Sequence record: MZ375249.1
Origin: Escherichia phage T7
DNA: 38,166 nt
Direction: 5' to 3' (one strand)
The notes below the pieces were generated by a model. That model was given only the letters and a program-made list of their open reading frames with translations. It made no database searches and had not been told where the DNA came from. This document shows, one piece after another, positions 1-38,166 of the stretch. Each line of letters starts with the position of its first letter. Position 1 is the stretch's first letter. The position numbers and the translations under genes are program-made.

Positions 1-142
1 TCTCACAGTGTACGGACCTAAAGTTCCCCCATAGGGTGTACCTAAAGCCCAGCCAATCACCTAAAGTCAACCTTCGGTTGACCTTGAGGGTTCCCTAAGG
101 GTTTGTCTTTGGGTGTTACCTTGAGTGTCTCTCTGTGTCCCT
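1..142. repeat. Left direct terminal repeat (terminal redundancy), identical to 38025..38166
   Basis: Exact 142-bp identity between first and last 142 bases; begins with the canonical T7 left end TCTCACAGTGTACGG. Confidence 0.95.
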
Positions 143-340
143 CTCTGTTACAGTCTCCTAAAGTATCCTCCTAAAGTCACCTCCTAACGTCCATCCTAAA
201 GCCAACACCTAAAGCCAACACCTAAAGACCCATCAAGTCAACGCCTATCTTAAAGTTTAAACATAAAGACCAGACCTAAAGACCAGACCTAAAGACACTA
301 CATAAAGACCAGACCTAAAGACGCCTTGTTGTTAGCCATA
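143..340. repeat. Array of short CCTAAAG-type heptamer repeats adjacent to left terminal repeat (concatemer processing/packaging region)
   Basis: Repeated cctaaag / acctaaag / cataaag units visible directly in sequence. Confidence 0.8.
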
Positions 341-1260: not shown

Positions 1261-1391
1261 TGTCTACTACCAACGTGCAATACGGTCTGACCGCTCAAAC
1301 TGTACTTTTCTATAGCGACATGGGGCGGCGTGGCATAGACGAAAGGAAAAGGTTAAAGCCAAGAAACTCGCCGCACTTGAACAGGCACTAG
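1260..1391 (+). pseudogene. Remnant of genes 0.4-0.6: gene 0.4 start ([21 protein letters not shown]) fused to out-of-frame 3' sequence of gene 0.6; a separate frame still encodes the 0.6B C-terminal tail up to a TAA at 1415..1417
   Basis: 43-codon ORF overlapping the 0.3 stop; only 180 bp separate 0.3 and 0.7 here versus about 740 bp in reference T7. Confidence 0.7.
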
Positions 1392-1439
1392 CCAACACAC
1401 TGAACGCTATCTCATAACGAACATAAAGGACACAATGCA

Positions 1440-2519
1440 ATGAACATTACCGACATCATGAACGCTATCGACGCAATCAAAGCACTGCCAATCTGTGAAC
1501 TTGACAAGCGTCAAGGTATGCTTATCGACTTACTGGTCGAGATGGTCAACAGCGAGACGTGTGATGGCGAGCTAACCGAACTAAATCAGGCACTTGAGCA
1601 TCAAGATTGGTGGACTACCTTGAAGTGTCTCACGGCTGACGCAGGGTTCAAGATGCTCGGTAATGGTCACTTCTCGGCTGCTTATAGTCACCCGCTGCTA
1701 CCTAACAGAGTGATTAAGGTGGGCTTTAAGAAAGAGGATTCAGGCGCAGCCTATACCGCATTCTGCCGCATGTATCAGGGTCGTCCTGGTATCCCTAACG
1801 TCTACGATGTACAGCGCCACGCTGGATGCTATACGGTGGTACTTGACGCACTTAAGGATTGCGAGCGTTTCAACAATGATGCCCATTATAAATACGCTGA
1901 GATTGCAAGCGACATCATTGATTGCAATTCGGATGAGCATGATGAGTTAACTGGATGGGATGGTGAGTTTGTTGAAACTTGTAAACTAATCCGCAAGTTC
2001 TTTGAGGGCATCGCCTCATTCGACATGCATAGCGGGAACATCATGTTCTCAAATGGAGACGTACCATACATCACCGACCCGGTATCATTCTCGCAGAAGA
2101 AAGACGGTGGCGCATTCAGCATCGACCCTGAGGAACTCATCAAGGAAGTCGAGGAAGTCGCACGACAGAAAGAAATTGACCGCGCTAAGGCCCGTAAAGA
2201 ACGTCACGAGGGGCGCTTAGAGGCACGCAGATTCAAACGTCGCAACCGCAAGGCACGTAAAGCACACAAAGCTAAGCGCGAAAGAATGCTTGCTGCGTGG
2301 CGATGGGCTGAACGTCAAGAACGGCGTAACCATGAGGTAGCTGTAGATGTACTAGGAAGAACCAATAACGCTATGCTCTGGGTCAACATGTTCTCTGGGG
2401 ACTTTAAGGCGCTTGAGGAACGAATCGCGCTGCACTGGCGTAATGCTGACCGGATGGCTATCGCTAATGGTCTTACGCTCAACATTGATAAGCAACTTGA
2501 CGCAATGTTAATGGGCTGA
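1440..2519 (+). CDS. 0.7: Gene 0.7, serine/threonine protein kinase / host transcription shut-off (359 aa)
   Basis: Full-length ORF matching T7 gp0.7 in size and sequence. Confidence 0.95.
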
Positions 2520-2589: not shown

Positions 2590-5241
2590 ATGAACACGAT
2601 TAACATCGCTAAGAACGACTTCTCTGACATCGAACTGGCTGCTATCCCGTTCAACACTCTGGCTGACCATTACGGTGAGCGTTTAGCTCGCGAACAGTTG
2701 GCCCTTGAGCATGAGTCTTACGAGATGGGTGAAGCACGCTTCCGCAAGATGTTTGAGCGTCAACTTAAAGCTGGTGAGGTTGCGGATAACGCTGCCGCCA
2801 AGCCTCTCATCACTACCCTACTCCCTAAGATGATTGCACGCATCAACGACTGGTTTGAGGAAGTGAAAGCTAAGCGCGGCAAGCGCCCGACAGCCTTCCA
2901 GTTCCTGCAAGAAATCAAGCCGGAAGCCGTAGCGTACATCACCATTAAGACCACTCTGGCTTGCCTAACCAGTGCTGACAATACAACCGTTCAGGCTGTA
3001 GCAAGCGCAATCGGTCGGGCCATTGAGGACGAGGCTCGCTTCGGTCGTATCCGTGACCTTGAAGCTAAGCACTTCAAGAAAAACGTTGAGGAACAACTCA
3101 ACAAGCGCGTAGGGCACGTCTACAAGAAAGCATTTATGCGAGTTGTCGAGGCTGACATGCTCTCTAAGGGTCTACTCGGTGGCGAGGCGTGGTCTTCGTG
3201 GCATAAGGAAGACTCTATTCATGTAGGAGTACGCTGCATCGAGATGCTCATTGAGTCAACCGGAATGGTTAGCTTACACCGCCAAAATGCTGGCGTAGTA
3301 GGTCAAGACTCTGAGACTATCGAACTCGCACCTGAATACGCTGAGGCTATCGCAACCCGTGCAGGTGCGCTGGCTGGCATCTCTCCGATGTTCCAACCTT
3401 GCGTAGTTCCTCCTAAGCCGTGGACTGGCATTACTGGTGGTGGCTATTGGGCTAACGGTCGTCGTCCTCTGGCGCTGGTGCGTACTCACAGTAAGAAAGC
3501 ACTGATGCGCTACGAAGACGTTTACATGCCTGAGGTGTACAAAGCGATTAACATTGCGCAAAACACCGCATGGAAAATCAACAAGAAAGTCCTAGCGGTC
3601 GCCAACGTAATCACCAAGTGGAAGCATTGTCCGGTCGAGGACATCCCTGCGATTGAGCGTGAAGAACTCCCGATGAAACCGGAAGACATCGACATGAATC
3701 CTGAGGCTCTCACCGCGTGGAAACGTGCTGCCGCTGCTGTGTACCGCAAGGACAAGGCTCGCAAGTCTCGCCGTATCAGCCTTGAGTTCATGCTTGAGCA
3801 AGCCAATAAGTTTGCTAACCATAAGGCCATCTGGTTCCCTTACAACATGGACTGGCGCGGTCGTGTTTACGCTGTGTCAATGTTCAACCCGCAAGGTAAC
3901 GATATGACCAAAGGACTGCTTACGCTGGCGAAAGGTAAACCAATCGGTAAGGAAGGTTACTACTGGCTGAAAATCCACGGTGCAAACTGTGCGGGTGTCG
4001 ATAAGGTTCCGTTCCCTGAGCGCATCAAGTTCATTGAGGAAAACCACGAGAACATCATGGCTTGCGCTAAGTCTCCACTGGAGAACACTTGGTGGGCTGA
4101 GCAAGATTCTCCGTTCTGCTTCCTTGCGTTCTGCTTTGAGTACGCTGGGGTACAGCACCACGGCCTGAGCTATAACTGCTCCCTTCCGCTGGCGTTTGAC
4201 GGGTCTTGCTCTGGCATCCAGCACTTCTCCGCGATGCTCCGAGATGAGGTAGGTGGTCGCGCGGTTAACTTGCTTCCTAGTGAAACCGTTCAGGACATCT
4301 ACGGGATTGTTGCTAAGAAAGTCAACGAGATTCTACAAGCAGACGCAATCAATGGGACCGATAACGAAGTAGTTACCGTGACCGATGAGAACACTGGTGA
4401 AATCTCTGAGAAAGTCAAGCTGGGCACTAAGGCACTGGCTGGTCAATGGCTGGCTTACGGTGTTACTCGCAGTGTGACTAAGCGTTCAGTCATGACGCTG
4501 GCTTACGGGTCCAAAGAGTTCGGCTTCCGTCAACAAGTGCTGGAAGATACCATTCAGCCAGCTATTGATTCCGGCAAGGGTCTGATGTTCACTCAGCCGA
4601 ATCAGGCTGCTGGATACATGGCTAAGCTGATTTGGGAATCTGTGAGCGTGACGGTGGTAGCTGCGGTTGAAGCAATGAACTGGCTTAAGTCTGCTGCTAA
4701 GCTGCTGGCTGCTGAGGTCAAAGATAAGAAGACTGGAGAGATTCTTCGCAAGCGTTGCGCTGTGCATTGGGTAACTCCTGATGGTTTCCCTGTGTGGCAG
4801 GAATACAAGAAGCCTATTCAGACGCGCTTGAACCTGATGTTCCTCGGTCAGTTCCGCTTACAGCCTACCATTAACACCAACAAAGATAGCGAGATTGATG
4901 CACACAAACAGGAGTCTGGTATCGCTCCTAACTTTGTACACAGCCAAGACGGTAGCCACCTTCGTAAGACTGTAGTGTGGGCACACGAGAAGTACGGAAT
5001 CGAATCTTTTGCACTGATTCACGACTCCTTCGGTACCATTCCGGCTGACGCTGCGAACCTGTTCAAAGCAGTGCGCGAAACTATGGTTGACACATATGAG
5101 TCTTGTGATGTACTGGCTGATTTCTACGACCAGTTCGCTGACCAGTTGCACGAGTCTCAATTGGACAAAATGCCAGCACTTCCGGCTAAAGGTAACTTGA
5201 ACCTCCGTGACATCTTAGAGTCGGACTTCGCGTTCGCGTAA
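2590..5241 (+). CDS. 1: Gene 1, T7 RNA polymerase (883 aa)
   Basis: MNTINIAKNDFSDIELAAIPFNTLADHYGERLAREQLALEHESYEMGEARF... ending DILESDFAFA; canonical T7 RNAP. Confidence 0.99.
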   Translation: MNTINIAKNDFSDIELAAIPFNTLADHYGERLAREQLALEHESYEMGEARFRKMFERQLKAGEVADNAAAKPLITTLLPKMIARINDWFEEVKAKRGKRPTAFQFLQEIKPEAVAYITIKTTLACLTSADNTTVQAVASAIGRAIEDEARFGRIRDLEAKHFKKNVEEQLNKRVGHVYKKAFMRVVEADMLSKGLLGGEAWSSWHKEDSIHVGVRCIEMLIESTGMVSLHRQNAGVVGQDSETIELAPEYAEAIATRAGALAGISPMFQPCVVPPKPWTGITGGGYWANGRRPLALVRTHSKKALMRYEDVYMPEVYKAINIAQNTAWKINKKVLAVANVITKWKHCPVEDIPAIEREELPMKPEDIDMNPEALTAWKRAAAAVYRKDKARKSRRISLEFMLEQANKFANHKAIWFPYNMDWRGRVYAVSMFNPQGNDMTKGLLTLAKGKPIGKEGYYWLKIHGANCAGVDKVPFPERIKFIEENHENIMACAKSPLENTWWAEQDSPFCFLAFCFEYAGVQHHGLSYNCSLPLAFDGSCSGIQHFSAMLRDEVGGRAVNLLPSETVQDIYGIVAKKVNEILQADAINGTDNEVVTVTDENTGEISEKVKLGTKALAGQWLAYGVTRSVTKRSVMTLAYGSKEFGFRQQVLEDTIQPAIDSGKGLMFTQPNQAAGYMAKLIWESVSVTVVAAVEAMNWLKSAAKLLAAEVKDKKTGEILRKRCAVHWVTPDGFPVWQEYKKPIQTRLNLMFLGQFRLQPTINTNKDSEIDAHKQESGIAPNFVHSQDGSHLRKTVVWAHEKYGIESFALIHDSFGTIPADAANLFKAVRETMVDTYESCDVLADFYDQFADQLHESQLDKMPALPAKGNLNLRDILESDFAFA

Positions 5242-7429: not shown

Positions 7430-8011
7430 TGGGACTGTTAGATGGTGAAGCCTGGGAAAAAGAAAACCCGCCAGTACAAGCAACTGGGTGTATAGCTTGC
7501 TTAGAGAAAGATGACCGTTATCCACACACCTGTAACAAAGGAGCTAACGATATGACCGAACGTGAACAAGAGATGATCATTAAGTTGATAGACAATAATG
7601 AAGGTCGCCCAGATGATTTGAATGGCTGCGGTATTCTCTGCTCCAATGTCCCTTGCCACCTCTGCCCCGCAAATAACGATCAAAAGATAACCTTAGGTGA
7701 AATCCGAGCGATGGACCCACGTAAACCACATCTGAATAAACCTGAGGTAACTCCTACAGATGACCAGCCTTCCGCTGAGACAATCGAAGGTGTCACTAAG
7801 CCTTCCCACTACATGCTGTTTGACGACATTGAGGCTATCGAAGTGATTGCTCGTTCAATGACCGTTGAGCAGTTCAAGGGATACTGCTTCGGTAACATCT
7901 TAAAGTACAGACTACGTGCTGGTAAGAAGTCAGAGTTAGCGTACTTAGAGAAAGACCTAGCGAAAGCAGACTTCTATAAAGAACTCTTTGAGAAACATAA
8001 GGATAAATGTT

Positions 8012-10424: not shown

Positions 10425-12294
<1,870 letters not shown>

Positions 12295-13125: not shown

Positions 13126-15240
13126 ATGATCGTTTCTGACATCGAAGCTAACGCCCTCTTAGAGAGCGTCACTAAGTTCCACTGCGGGGTTATCTACGAC
13201 TACTCCACCGCTGAGTACGTAAGCTACCGTCCGAGTGACTTCGGTGCGTATCTGGATGCGCTGGAAGCCGAGGTTGCACGAGGCGGTCTTATTGTGTTCC
13301 ACAACGGTCACAAGTATGACGTTCCTGCATTGACCAAACTGGCAAAGTTGCAATTGAACCGAGAGTTCCACCTTCCTCGTGAGAACTGTATTGACACCCT
13401 TGTGTTGTCACGTTTGATTCATTCCAACCTCAAGGACACCGATATGGGTCTTCTGCGTTCCGGCAAGTTGCCCGGAAAACGCTTTGGGTCTCACGCTTTG
13501 GAGGCGTGGGGTTATCGCTTAGGCGAGATGAAGGGTGAATACAAAGACGACTTTAAGCGTATGCTTGAAGAGCAGGGTGAAGAATACGTTGACGGAATGG
13601 AGTGGTGGAACTTCAACGAAGAGATGATGGACTATAACGTTCAGGACGTTGTGGTAACTAAAGCTCTCCTTGAGAAGCTACTCTCTGACAAACATTACTT
13701 CCCTCCTGAGATTGACTTTACGGACGTAGGATACACTACGTTCTGGTCAGAATCCCTTGAGGCCGTTGACATTGAACATCGTGCTGCATGGCTGCTCGCT
13801 AAACAAGAGCGCAACGGGTTCCCGTTTGACACAAAAGCAATCGAAGAGTTGTACGTAGAGTTAGCTGCTCGCCGCTCTGAGTTGCTCCGTAAATTGACCG
13901 AAACGTTCGGCTCGTGGTATCAGCCTAAAGGTGGCACTGAGATGTTCTGCCATCCGCGAACAGGTAAGCCACTACCTAAATACCCTCGCATTAAGACACC
14001 TAAAGTTGGTGGTATCTTTAAGAAGCCTAAGAACAAGGCACAGCGAGAAGGCCGTGAGCCTTGCGAACTTGATACCCGCGAGTACGTTGCTGGTGCTCCT
14101 TACACCCCAGTTGAACATGTTGTGTTTAACCCTTCGTCTCGTGACCACATTCAGAAGAAACTCCAAGAGGCTGGGTGGGTCCCGACCAAGTACACCGATA
14201 AGGGTGCTCCTGTGGTGGACGATGAGGTACTCGAAGGAGTACGTGTAGATGACCCTGAGAAGCAAGCCGCTATCGACCTCATTAAAGAGTACTTGATGAT
14301 TCAGAAGCGAATCGGACAGTCTGCTGAGGGAGACACAGCATGGCTTCGTTATGTTGCTGAGGATGGTAAGATTCATGGTTCTGTTAACCCTAATGGAGCA
14401 GTTACGGGTCGTGCGACCCATGCGTTCCCAAACCTTGCGCAAATTCCGGGTGTACGTTCTCCTTATGGAGAGCAGTGTCGCGCTGCTTTTGGCGCTGAGC
14501 ACCATTTGGATGGGATAACTGGTAAGCCTTGGGTTCAGGCTGGCATCGACGCATCCGGTCTTGAGCTACGCTGCTTGGCTCACTTCATGGCTCGCTTTGA
14601 TAACGGCGAGTACGCTCACGAGATTCTTAACGGCGACATCCACACTAAGAACCAGATAGCTGCTGAACTACCTACCCGAGATAACGCTAAGACGTTCATC
14701 TATGGGTTCCTCTATGGTGCTGGTGATGAGAAGATTGGACAGATTGTTGGTGCTGGTAAAGAGCGCGGTAAGGAACTCAAGAAGAAATTCCTTGAGAACA
14801 CCCCCGCGATTGCAGCACTCCGCGAGTCTATCCAACAGACACTTGTCGAGTCCTCTCAATGGGTAGCTGGTGAGCAACAAGTCAAGTGGAAACGCCGCTG
14901 GATTAAAGGTCTGGATGGTCGTAAGGTACACGTTCGTAGTCCTCACGCTGCCTTGAATACCCTACTGCAATCTGCTGGTGCTCTCATCTGCAAACTGTGG
15001 ATTATCAAGACCGAAGAGATGCTCGTAGAGAAAGGCTTGAAGCATGGCTGGGATGGGGACTTTGCGTACATGGCATGGGTACATGATGAAATCCAAGTAG
15101 GCTGCCGTACCGAAGAGATTGCTCAGGTGGTCATTGAGACCGCACAAGAAGCGATGCGCTGGGTTGGAGACCACTGGAACTTCCGGTGTCTTCTGGATAC
15201 CGAAGGTAAGATGGGTCCTAATTGGGCGATTTGCCACTGA
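13126..15240 (+). CDS. 5: Gene 5, DNA polymerase (704 aa)
   Basis: [36 protein letters not shown]...; exonuclease and Pol I family motifs; ends NWAICH. Confidence 0.99.
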
Positions 15241-15952: not shown

Positions 15953-16841
15953 CCTTAAACAATTCTATGAGTTACGTGAAGGCTGCGACGACAAGGGTAT
16001 CCTTGTGATGGACGGCGACTGGCTGGTCTTCCAAGCTATGAGTGCTGCTGAGTTTGATGCCTCTTGGGAGGAAGAGATTTGGCACCGATGCTGTGACCAC
16101 GCTAAGGCCCGTCAGATTCTTGAGGATTCCATTAAGTCCTACGAGACCCGTAAGAAGGCTTGGGCAGGTGCTCCAATTGTCCTTGCGTTCACCGATAGTG
16201 TTAACTGGCGTAAAGAACTGGTTGACCCGAACTATAAGGCTAACCGTAAGGCCGTGAAGAAACCTGTAGGGTACTTTGAGTTCCTTGATGCTCTCTTTGA
16301 GCGCGAAGAGTTCTATTGCATCCGTGAGCCTATGCTTGAGGGTGATGACGTTATGGGAGTTATTGCTTCCAATCCGTCTGCCTTCGGTGCTCGTAAGGCT
16401 GTAATCATCTCTTGCGATAAGGACTTTAAGACCATCCCTAACTGTGACTTCCTGTGGTGTACCACTGGTAACATCCTGACTCAGACCGAAGAGTCCGCTG
16501 ACTGGTGGCACCTCTTCCAGACCATCAAGGGTGACATCACTGATGGTTACTCAGGGATTGCTGGATGGGGTGATACCGCCGAGGACTTCTTGAATAACCC
16601 GTTCATAACCGAGCCTAAAACGTCTGTGCTTAAGTCCGGTAAGAACAAAGGCCAAGAGGTTACTAAATGGGTTAAACGCGACCCTGAGCCTCATGAGACG
16701 CTTTGGGACTGCATTAAGTCCATTGGCGCGAAGGCTGGTATGACCGAAGAGGATATTATCAAGCAGGGCCAAATGGCTCGAATCCTACGGTTCAACGAGT
16801 ACAACTTTATTGACAAGGAGATTTACCTGTGGAGACCGTAG
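15939..16841 (+). CDS. 6: Gene 6, 5'-3' exonuclease (300 aa)
   Basis: MALLDLKQFYELREGCDDKGILVMDGDWLVFQAMSAAEFD... Confidence 0.97.
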   Translation: MALLDLKQFYELREGCDDKGILVMDGDWLVFQAMSAAEFDASWEEEIWHRCCDHAKARQILEDSIKSYETRKKAWAGAPIVLAFTDSVNWRKELVDPNYKANRKAVKKPVGYFEFLDALFEREEFYCIREPMLEGDDVMGVIASNPSAFGARKAVIISCDKDFKTIPNCDFLWCTTGNILTQTEESADWWHLFQTIKGDITDGYSGIAGWGDTAEDFLNNPFITEPKTSVLKSGKNKGQEVTKWVKRDPEPHETLWDCIKSIGAKAGMTEEDIIKQGQMARILRFNEYNFIDKEIYLWRP

Positions 16842-35804: not shown

Positions 35805-37565
35805 GTGTCTACTCAATCCAATCGTAATGCGCTCGTAGTGGCGCAACTGAAAGGAGACTTCGTGGCGTTCCTATTCGTCTTATGGAAGGCGCTAAACCTA
35901 CCGGTGCCCACTAAGTGTCAGATTGACATGGCTAAGGTGCTGGCGAATGGAGACAACAAGAAGTTCATCTTACAGGCTTTCCGTGGTATCGGTAAGTCGT
36001 TCATCACATGTGCGTTCGTTGTGTGGTCCTTATGGAGAGACCCTCAGTTGAAGATACTTATCGTATCAGCCTCTAAGGAGCGTGCAGACGCTAACTCCAT
36101 CTTTATTAAGAACATCATTGACCTGCTGCCATTCCTATCTGAGTTAAAGCCAAGACCCGGACAGCGTGACTCGGTAATCAGCTTTGATGTAGGCCCAGCC
36201 AATCCTGACCACTCTCCTAGTGTGAAATCAGTAGGTATCACTGGTCAGTTAACTGGTAGCCGTGCTGACATTATCATTGCGGATGACGTTGAGATTCCGT
36301 CTAACAGCGCAACTATGGGTGCCCGTGAGAAGCTATGGACTCTGGTTCAGGAGTTCGCTGCGTTACTTAAACCGCTGCCTTCCTCTCGCGTTATCTACCT
36401 TGGTACACCTCAGACAGAGATGACTCTCTATAAGGAACTTGAGGATAACCGTGGGTACACAACCATTATCTGGCCTGCTCTGTACCCAAGGACACGTGAA
36501 GAGAACCTCTATTACTCACAGCGTCTTGCTCCTATGTTACGCGCTGAGTACGATGAGAACCCTGAGGCACTTGCTGGGACTCCAACAGACCCAGTGCGCT
36601 TTGACCGTGATGACCTGCGCGAGCGTGAGTTGGAATACGGTAAGGCTGGCTTTACGCTACAGTTCATGCTTAACCCTAACCTTAGTGATGCCGAGAAGTA
36701 CCCGCTGAGGCTTCGTGACGCTATCGTAGCGGCCTTAGACTTAGAGAAGGCCCCAATGCATTACCAGTGGCTTCCGAACCGTCAGAACATCATTGAGGAC
36801 CTTCCTAACGTTGGCCTTAAGGGTGATGACCTGCATACGTACCACGATTGTTCCAACAACTCAGGTCAGTACCAACAGAAGATTCTGGTCATTGACCCTA
36901 GTGGTCGCGGTAAGGACGAAACAGGTTACGCTGTGCTGTACACACTGAACGGTTACATCTACCTTATGGAAGCTGGAGGTTTCCGTGATGGCTACTCCGA
37001 TAAGACCCTTGAGTTACTCGCTAAGAAGGCAAAGCAATGGGGAGTCCAGACGGTTGTCTACGAGAGTAACTTCGGTGACGGTATGTTCGGTAAGGTATTC
37101 AGTCCTATCCTTCTTAAACACCACAACTGTGCGATGGAAGAGATTCGTGCCCGTGGTATGAAAGAGATGCGTATTTGCGATACCCTTGAGCCAGTCATGC
37201 AGACTCACCGCCTTGTAATTCGTGATGAGGTCATTAGGGCCGACTACCAGTCCGCTCGTGACGTAGACGGTAAGCATGACGTTAAGTACTCGTTGTTCTA
37301 CCAGATGACCCGTATCACTCGTGAGAAAGGCGCTCTGGCTCATGATGACCGATTGGATGCCCTTGCGTTAGGCATTGAGTATCTCCGTGAGTCCATGCAG
37401 TTGGATTCCGTTAAGGTCGAGGGTGAAGTACTTGCTGACTTCCTTGAGGAACACATGATGCGTCCTACGGTTGCTGCTACGCATATCATTGAGATGTCTG
37501 TGGGAGGAGTTGATGTGTACTCTGAGGACGATGAGGGTTACGGTACGTCTTTCATTGAGTGGTGA
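35805..37565 (+). CDS. 19: Gene 19, terminase large subunit (586 aa, GTG start)
   Basis: [49 protein letters not shown]...; ATPase and nuclease domains. Confidence 0.97.
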
Positions 37566-38024: not shown

Positions 38025-38166
38025 TCTCACAGTGTACGGACCTAAAGTTCCCCCATAGGGTGTACCTAAAGCCCAGCCAATCACCTAAAGTCAACCTTCG
38101 GTTGACCTTGAGGGTTCCCTAAGGGTTTGTCTTTGGGTGTTACCTTGAGTGTCTCTCTGTGTCCCT
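38025..38166. repeat. Right direct terminal repeat, identical to 1..142
   Basis: Exact 142-bp match to the window start. Confidence 0.95.

Follow-up and report, generated by a model that had tools for sequence, protein, structure and literature searches.

A shortened terminal repeat in a laboratory-evolved, genome-reduced clone of bacteriophage T7

The genome ends compared with T7

The stretch of DNA analysed here (the window) comprises the 38,166 nucleotides of sequence record MZ375249.1, read as one strand from 5' to 3'. Its first 142 bases recur in direct orientation and with 100% identity at the other end, and the record as deposited contains no longer terminal match. A whole-window repeat search returned this pair as the sole long direct repeat besides the 14-member family of T7 promoters, and an exact match of 142 bp at both termini cannot be a matter of chance. 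The terminal repeat of T7 has been reported to be 160 bp long (PMC3737178), and this is also the length of the exact terminal repeat in the reference genome NC_001604. Global alignment of the two repeats leaves one gap of 18 bp and one mismatch that turns GGGGG into GGGTG (G37T), with 141 of the 142 window positions identical to the T7 repeat (NC_001604 / V01146). An earlier note on this DNA, made from the sequence alone, had claimed the identity of the two ends, the length of 142 bp against 160 bp in the reference, the position of the missing 18 bp between two GGGTT motifs (ccctaagggtt, then tgtctttggg) and a possible G-to-T substitution in both copies; the terminal match and the alignment bear out all of this.

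The window and T7 share the terminal bases (TCTCACAG... and ...GTGTCCCT), the CCTAAAG heptamers, which form arrays on both flanks of the window repeat, the hairpin at 66-82, the right-end flank and the terminase genes. Moreover, the first 36 and the last 39 bases of the repeat are the same as in T7 and both boundary sequences are present. The window thus has what characterizes an exact direct terminal repeat of the T7 type, namely end copies in the same direction, homology to T7, the terminase genes 18 and 19 and the heptamer arrays; an element of that type that is missing is the sequence ATCTGTT directly after the repeat, a feature of the flank outside the repeat proper, which reads CTCTGTT in the window. 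The figure of 142 bp assumes unchanged cut sites: the record ends follow the T7 convention, and the base that adjoins the right-hand cut site is mutated. The repeat is without open reading frames of note.

The exact placement of the gap is ambiguous because GGGTT is present at two positions in the T7 repeat (Table 1). The lost 18 bp, given here as reference 99-116, could be placed anywhere from there to 104-121. In T7 the flanks of the two motifs extend to an imperfect repeat of 10/11 nt, CCCT(AA/T)GGGTT, with CCCTAAGGGTT and CCCTTGGGTT as its units. Across the deletion site the wild-type sequence of T7 reads GGGTTGGGGATGACCCTTGGGTT / GGGTTGGGGATGACCC, whereas the junction of the deleted allele (delta-18) reads CCCTAAGGGTTTGTC.

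Judged by its sequence, the window is a laboratory-evolved, genome-reduced T7 clone from a CRISPR/Cas9 passage series and not wild T7, a point that the earlier note had missed. The database records nearest to it bear the title 'Mutant Escherichia phage T7 clone T7_nnL/S'. The series comprises GenBank MZ375234-294 (Yuan et al. 2022, CiPGr genome reduction), and the records OL964739-41 also belong to it. In this CRISPR/Cas9-based iterative genome-reduction experiment (Yuan et al., Nucleic Acids Res 2022; PMC9825161), T7 was passaged at least 300 times on E. coli MG1655 that was equipped with Cas9, lambda Red and a cassette library for the targeting of genes, and large-plaque (L) and small-plaque (S) clones were subjected to Illumina sequencing and de novo assembly with SOAPdenovo. 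The CiPGr design combines a Cas9 cut with a template with 50-bp arms; only genes are targeted, and the edits remove 100 bp or whole non-essential genes (PMC9825161). The order of the accessions tracks the transfer number (245 is 70L, 246 is 70S, 250 is 90S and 251 is 100L), and MZ375249 falls between clones of transfers 80 and 90; by this pattern it is probably clone T7_90L.

Six segments of the T7 genome are absent from the window (Table 1) and the aligned remainder is ~99.9% identical to T7 (NC_001604). Between window 15256-37864 and reference 16821-39428, a region that includes genes 18 and 19 (terminase), the identity reaches 99.97%. As a side observation, the window has one extra T compared with T7 in the region 37400-37420 (T7 reference 39330), in non-coding sequence downstream of the promoter phiOR. 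Among the full genomes compared this extra base near reference 39330 occurs in the window only.

Table 1. Features of the genome ends, linked changes and segments absent from the window (reference: NC_001604)
Feature	Window	Reference	Strand	Basis
Left copy of the direct terminal repeat, allele with delta-18 and G37T	1..142		+	exact match to 38025-38166; alignment to NC_001604 repeat
CCCCCATAGGGTG, T7 palindrome C5-ATA-G5 broken by G37T	26..38, change at 37 (right copy 38061)		+	alignment, clone comparison
Hairpin palindrome GTCAACC-TTC-GGTTGAC, intact	66..82		+	sequence, folding
Deletion junction, single remaining GGGTT (two in T7)	99..103 (right end 38123-38127)	99-103 and 117-121	+	alignment
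CTCTGTT, A161C form of ATCTGTT, directly after the left repeat	143..149	161-167	+	sequence; motif from literature
T235A (reference numbering), two adjacent left-end repeat units made identical (GCCAACACCTAAA twice)	217	235	+	clone comparison
A405G, +1 base of promoter phiOL, TATAAGGAGA to consensus TATAGGGAGA	387	405	+	promoter annotated at 405; clone comparison
RNA polymerase Q184R (gene 1 codon 184)	3139-3141, change 3140	A3721G		clone comparison
Right copy of the direct terminal repeat, identical to the left	38025..38166		+	exact match
Absent segment, genes 0.4-0.6		1341-1903		alignment to T7
Absent segment, gene 1.4		7608-7763		alignment to T7
Absent segment, gene 3.8		11254-11545		alignment to T7
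Absent segment, gene 4.3		13350-13547		alignment to T7
Absent segment, gene 5.3		16483-16820		alignment to T7
Absent segment, gene 19.5		39420-39608		alignment to T7

Repeat alleles in the passage series and in natural relatives

We have read the left ends of 21 clones of the series and both ends of seven. The wild-type allele of 160 bp was found in 10S, 30L, 40L, 50L, 60L, 60S, 70L, 100L and 110L, which include all checked clones through transfer 60. Delta-18 appears from transfer 70 on: it is seen earliest in 70S and, besides the window, in the checked clones 90S, 120S, 170L/S, 190L/S, 210S, 260L and 300L.2. The remaining clone, 270L (MZ375285), has an allele of 161 bp with C6-ATA-G4, in which CCCTTGGG is changed to CCCTAAGGG. 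A BLAST search with the window repeat extended this distribution to the whole series, as the delta-18 type was found in 48 records, all of them within MZ375246-294 and OL964739-41, and in none of MZ375234-245. With the window included, 49 of the 53 clones from transfer 70 on have the deletion; wild-type-length repeats remain in the other four (70L, 100L, 110L and 270L), and there was thus no clean sweep.

The deleted allele has been modified further in several clones. G37T is common to the window, 170L, 170S, 190L, 190S, 210S and 300L.2, and seven records (MZ375260, 263, 271, 272, 274, 278 and 288) are 100% identical to window 1-142. A sequencing error in the run of five G residues was considered for G37T and rejected, since so many clones have the change; it is a heritable polymorphism. 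A second deletion, delta-11, took out reference 70-80 (11 bp) between two ACCTT repeats and is present in 170L (MZ375265), 170S and 190L and, by length, in MZ375276 and 282. It takes away half of the hairpin GTCAACC-TTC-GGTTGAC and leaves a repeat of 131-133 bp, and because the clones that have it are viable, the hairpin is dispensable. The palindrome C5-ATA-G5 occurs in seven alleles in the series, namely C4/G5, C4/G4, C5/GGGTG, C6/GGGTG, C6/GGGGA, C6/G4 and the wild type. Accordingly, the sister clones differ from the window in various ways: 70S is without G37T, 90S has a C4 run, 120S has C4/G4, 300L.2 has C6, and 170L/S and 190L have the extra 11-bp deletion. Delta-18, together with G37T, was found on two flanking haplotypes, that of the window and that of 170L, which hints at more than passive hitch-hiking.

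The 161-bp allele of 270L deserves separate mention. Here CCCTTGGGTT has turned into CCCTAAGGGTT and now matches the upstream unit exactly over 11 bp, and C6/G4 has replaced C5/G5, as in the natural relatives described below. Recombination or repair between the wild-type and delta-18 alleles could have produced this allele, and so could a chimeric assembly.

In all seven full records of the series that were checked, the two copies of the repeat are identical, whatever the allele. The earlier note had concluded from such identity that the deletion is real and not an assembly artefact. The conclusion holds, on other evidence, but the argument does not. A repeat of 142-160 bp collapses in de novo short-read assembly and is then written at both ends; the copies are therefore not independent, their identity does not exclude an artefact, and identical end repeats in a short-read assembly should not be counted as two observations. 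An assembler could, in principle, have collapsed the near-repeat CCCTAAGGGTT/CCCTTGGGTT, and the depositor could then have placed this collapsed form at each end of the record. The use of SOAPdenovo on Illumina reads would agree with this, as would the copy identity in every record checked, the one-base length differences among records and the 77 bp by which MZ375271 extends past its repeat. Nevertheless, the same pipeline delivered 160 bp in 10 checked clones, and the delta-18 junction is missing from every early clone and from four clones that are contemporaneous with deleted ones. Moreover, the 18-bp spacing of the 5-bp repeats lies well inside the read and k-mer length. We regard an artefact of this kind as very improbable. 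Indeed, the 18-bp deletion is real and heritable, because one exact junction recurs in 49 independently sequenced clones and only from transfer 70, because it is nested with the heritable linked variants G37T and delta-11, and because the microhomology is clean.

Some irregularities of the deposited ends were seen along the way. Some records have single-base length variants of the repeat (140, 141 and 143 bp), which may owe their length to noise in the assembly of homopolymers. In MZ375271 another 77 bp follow the right copy of the repeat, and the deposited genome thus seems to continue across the concatemer junction, which points to uneven curation of the ends in this series.

A comparison with natural relatives of T7 put the deletion in perspective. 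In the phages Yersinia YpsP-G, Salmonella 3A_8767 and Escherichia C5 the segment homologous to the T7 repeat measures 147-148 bp, and is thus shorter than in T7 within the same interior zone. By this homology, it is a different stretch of 12-13 bp that is missing: the relatives have kept GGGGATGACCCTTGGG, whereas TGTCTTTGGGTGT is absent. They have C6/G4 instead of the C5/G5 of T7 and have retained ATCTGTT, and they share the conserved ends, the heptamers and the hairpin with T7. Because the boundaries and the first 69 bp are untouched by the deletion, and because the length of the relatives varies in the same zone, delta-18 is tolerated. In addition, since the relatives lack another 12-13 bp and keep the part that is lost in the window, either half of the G/T-rich interior stretch is dispensable.

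The short homologous segments of these Teseptimavirus relatives might suggest that the window itself derives from a natural strain or relative of T7 in which the repeat is shorter. The indel of the relatives is a different one, however, and the window genome has the engineered gene deletions. Moreover, a search of 50,697 phage records with the window repeat gave matches of at least 95% in the MZ375/OL9647 laboratory series only, and the delta-18 junction had no matches in IMG/VR and the JGI metagenome contigs, where the control with the wild-type junction finds T7. The probability of a natural origin is therefore next to nil.

Origin of the deletion

The shortened repeat is very probably explained by a tolerated, spontaneous microhomology deletion, copied to both ends, in a passaged T7 clone. 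The sequence at the junction has the marks of such an event: the spacing of the GGGTT motifs equals the length of the deletion (18), a single GGGTT was kept, and there are no filler bases. The 18 bp would have been lost spontaneously between the GGGTT direct repeats via replication slippage or short-homology annealing, which lambda Red in the host may have promoted, and the G-to-T substitution in the C5-ATA-G5 palindrome would have followed the deletion. The 11-bp deletion between the ACCTT repeats is the same mechanism acting again. Deletions between direct repeats, and hence by microhomology, are a well known class in T7. The classic early-region deletion mutants likewise lost one repeat copy and the intervening DNA without filler; the microhomology in the window amounts to 5 bp. 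Yet those deletions affect non-essential early genes and remove hundreds to thousands of bp, whereas the 18 bp of the window lie inside the terminal repeat, and thus at both ends.

Considering the history of the clone, an involvement of the editing machinery has to be weighed. A designed CiPGr edit was rejected, as the lost 18 bp are non-coding and the designed edits take 100 bp or a whole targeted gene. A different matter is escape from Cas9, in which an off-target cut in the repeat by a library spacer would have been followed by microhomology repair. The phages went through hundreds of transfers on Cas9 and lambda-Red hosts with thousands of T7 spacers, 23.5% of the T7 point mutations were found in spacer or PAM regions (Yuan et al., PMC9825161), and the zone is rich in NGG PAMs, with 14 candidate protospacers that would be cut there. 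However, the library was aimed at genes only, none of which lies in the repeat, the size of 18 bp again does not agree with the edits, and even the best PAM-adjacent T7 20-mer has at least six mismatches to the 14 protospacers, at least two of which are in the seed. Escape from Cas9 is thus improbable, and a spontaneous deletion remains the preferred origin.

In T7 concatemers one copy of the repeat is present per junction, and this copy is duplicated during packaging. With the second copy synthesised at that stage, any change in the repeat would be found at both ends within one growth cycle, so that the expectation in the earlier note of one and the same change at both ends fits the biology of T7. 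Duplication of exact direct terminal repeats during packaging has been described as a general mechanism (PMC5000459). In addition, the junction repeat forms when the right end of one genome pairs with another genome's left end, and alleles may therefore cross between backgrounds in mixed infections. Such movement fits the presence of delta-18 and G37T on both flanking haplotypes. Most likely, the delta-18 allele was nearly neutral or mildly advantageous and spread as such through the passaged population.

In the main text of Yuan et al. the terminal repeat comes up a single time, in the methods; changes of the repeat are not discussed and end mapping is not reported (PMC9825161). A literature search on repeat changes in other T7 evolution experiments gave no precedent of delta-18; the sole change it brought up is one that Heineman and Brown 2012 label 'terminal repeat', a C-to-T of low frequency at position 189. 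Thus, delta-18 is an ordinary, mechanistically well-understood and tolerated variant, and it is new only as an allele undescribed in the main text of Yuan et al. The finding alone matters little, and the evidence for remodelling of the concatemer junction given below raises its interest slightly. It does imply that 18 bp of the interior of the T7 repeat are dispensable, and 29 bp in sister clones, conserved hairpin included. A dispensable interior narrows what the repeat has to provide for end-joining and cutting, and this is useful for the design of a minimal T7 genome or a T7 phagemid.

The concatemer junction and the question of selection

The change directly after the left repeat is a more interesting feature than the shortened repeat itself. 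ATCTGTT is the class II pause/termination signal of T7 RNA polymerase at the concatemer junction and has been described as strictly sequence-specific and strictly conserved; there the polymerase-lysozyme complex pauses, engages gp18/gp19 and starts maturation and packaging (PMC3276506). Among the checked clones the motif is intact in 10S alone, as it is in the three natural relatives, whereas all 20 clones from transfer 30 on have either A161C or T162C, two of them with T167A in addition. Two independent substitutions within a 7-bp motif, each at high frequency, indicate selection on the motif. The target of such selection is ambiguous, because a sigma-70 extended -10 promoter was recently reported at this site, in which the mutated bases 161, 162 and 167 are positions -18, -17 and -12.

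Two further changes concern the polymerase and a promoter. All full genomes checked from transfer 70 on have Q184R in T7 RNA polymerase; the change adjoins the region 172-180, which is implicated in the recognition of class II signals and in which alteration around residues 173-179 abolishes this recognition. The +1 change of phiOL (A405G) dates back to transfer 30 and, from transfer 70, occurs in every clone checked. It is possible, though on balance doubtful, that the shortening of the repeat is one step of a directional and partly parallel remodelling of the concatemer junction over ~2000 generations. In such a course ATCTGTT would have been destroyed first (A161C and T162C by transfer 30 or earlier, T167A later), after which the phiOL start would have become consensus and Q184R would have appeared, before the repeat was stripped of 18 bp, of one arm of a palindrome and of 11 bp in the hairpin.

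Small mutations of the series concentrate strongly at the left end. In five full genomes, 12 of the 43 small mutations lie in the non-coding left end (1-924), where 1.0 is expected (p = 2e-10), a clustering of ~12-fold, and 4 of 43 lie in the terminal repeat against 0.17 expected (p = 3e-5). Nearly all of the left-end events recur in at least two clones. One reading is that the shortening was positively selected or preferentially transmitted, as fewer G-tracts and palindromes would ease single-strand annealing, duplication of the repeat or passage of the polymerase, jointly with the loss of ATCTGTT, the phiOL +1 change and Q184R. The stepwise changes of the repeat, from delta-18 via G37T to delta-11 and the C-run alleles, point in this direction, and so do the two flanking haplotypes and the high frequency of the deletion in the late clones. 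The predicted single-strand folding of the repeat weakens, with energies of -24.9 (wild type), -16.1 (window) and -13.4 kcal/mol (170L), and G37T ranks 20th of the 426 possible substitutions for loss of structure, within the top 5%, in what is a post hoc test. In the same post hoc test, however, the deletions are unremarkable (13/143 and 48/143 for delta-18, 28/132 for delta-11), and the folding Z-scores of the repeat are not significant, that of the wild type included. The predicted destruction of structure by the repeat mutations is, therefore, a weak hint.

Moreover, mutations are frequent at homopolymer runs and microhomologies even in the absence of selection, and the natural relatives have kept the hairpin and the G-tracts. 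As wild-type-length alleles last to transfer 270 and the deletions are structurally unremarkable, near-neutral spread is the default reading, and direct selection on delta-18 is rather unlikely, as is a selected or preferentially transmitted shortening within a remodelled junction. By simple reading of the sequence, there are five G-tracts between reference 88 and 130, and delta-18 takes away two of them. A G-quadruplex was considered for delta-18 and dropped, since the loops of 8-9 nt in the sequence fall outside the canonical motif.

Should the changes at the junction turn out to be selected, the canonical pause and a large part of the repeat interior would be dispensable to T7, or their loss even an advantage. 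Likewise, remodelling of the junction, if true, would have direct consequences for the model of packaging initiation in T7, and the repeated mutations of the pause signal could provide a direct genetic test of the need for polymerase pausing in packaging. A last change in the left end, T235A, looks, from the sequence that it produces, like a templated homogenisation between neighbouring repeats.
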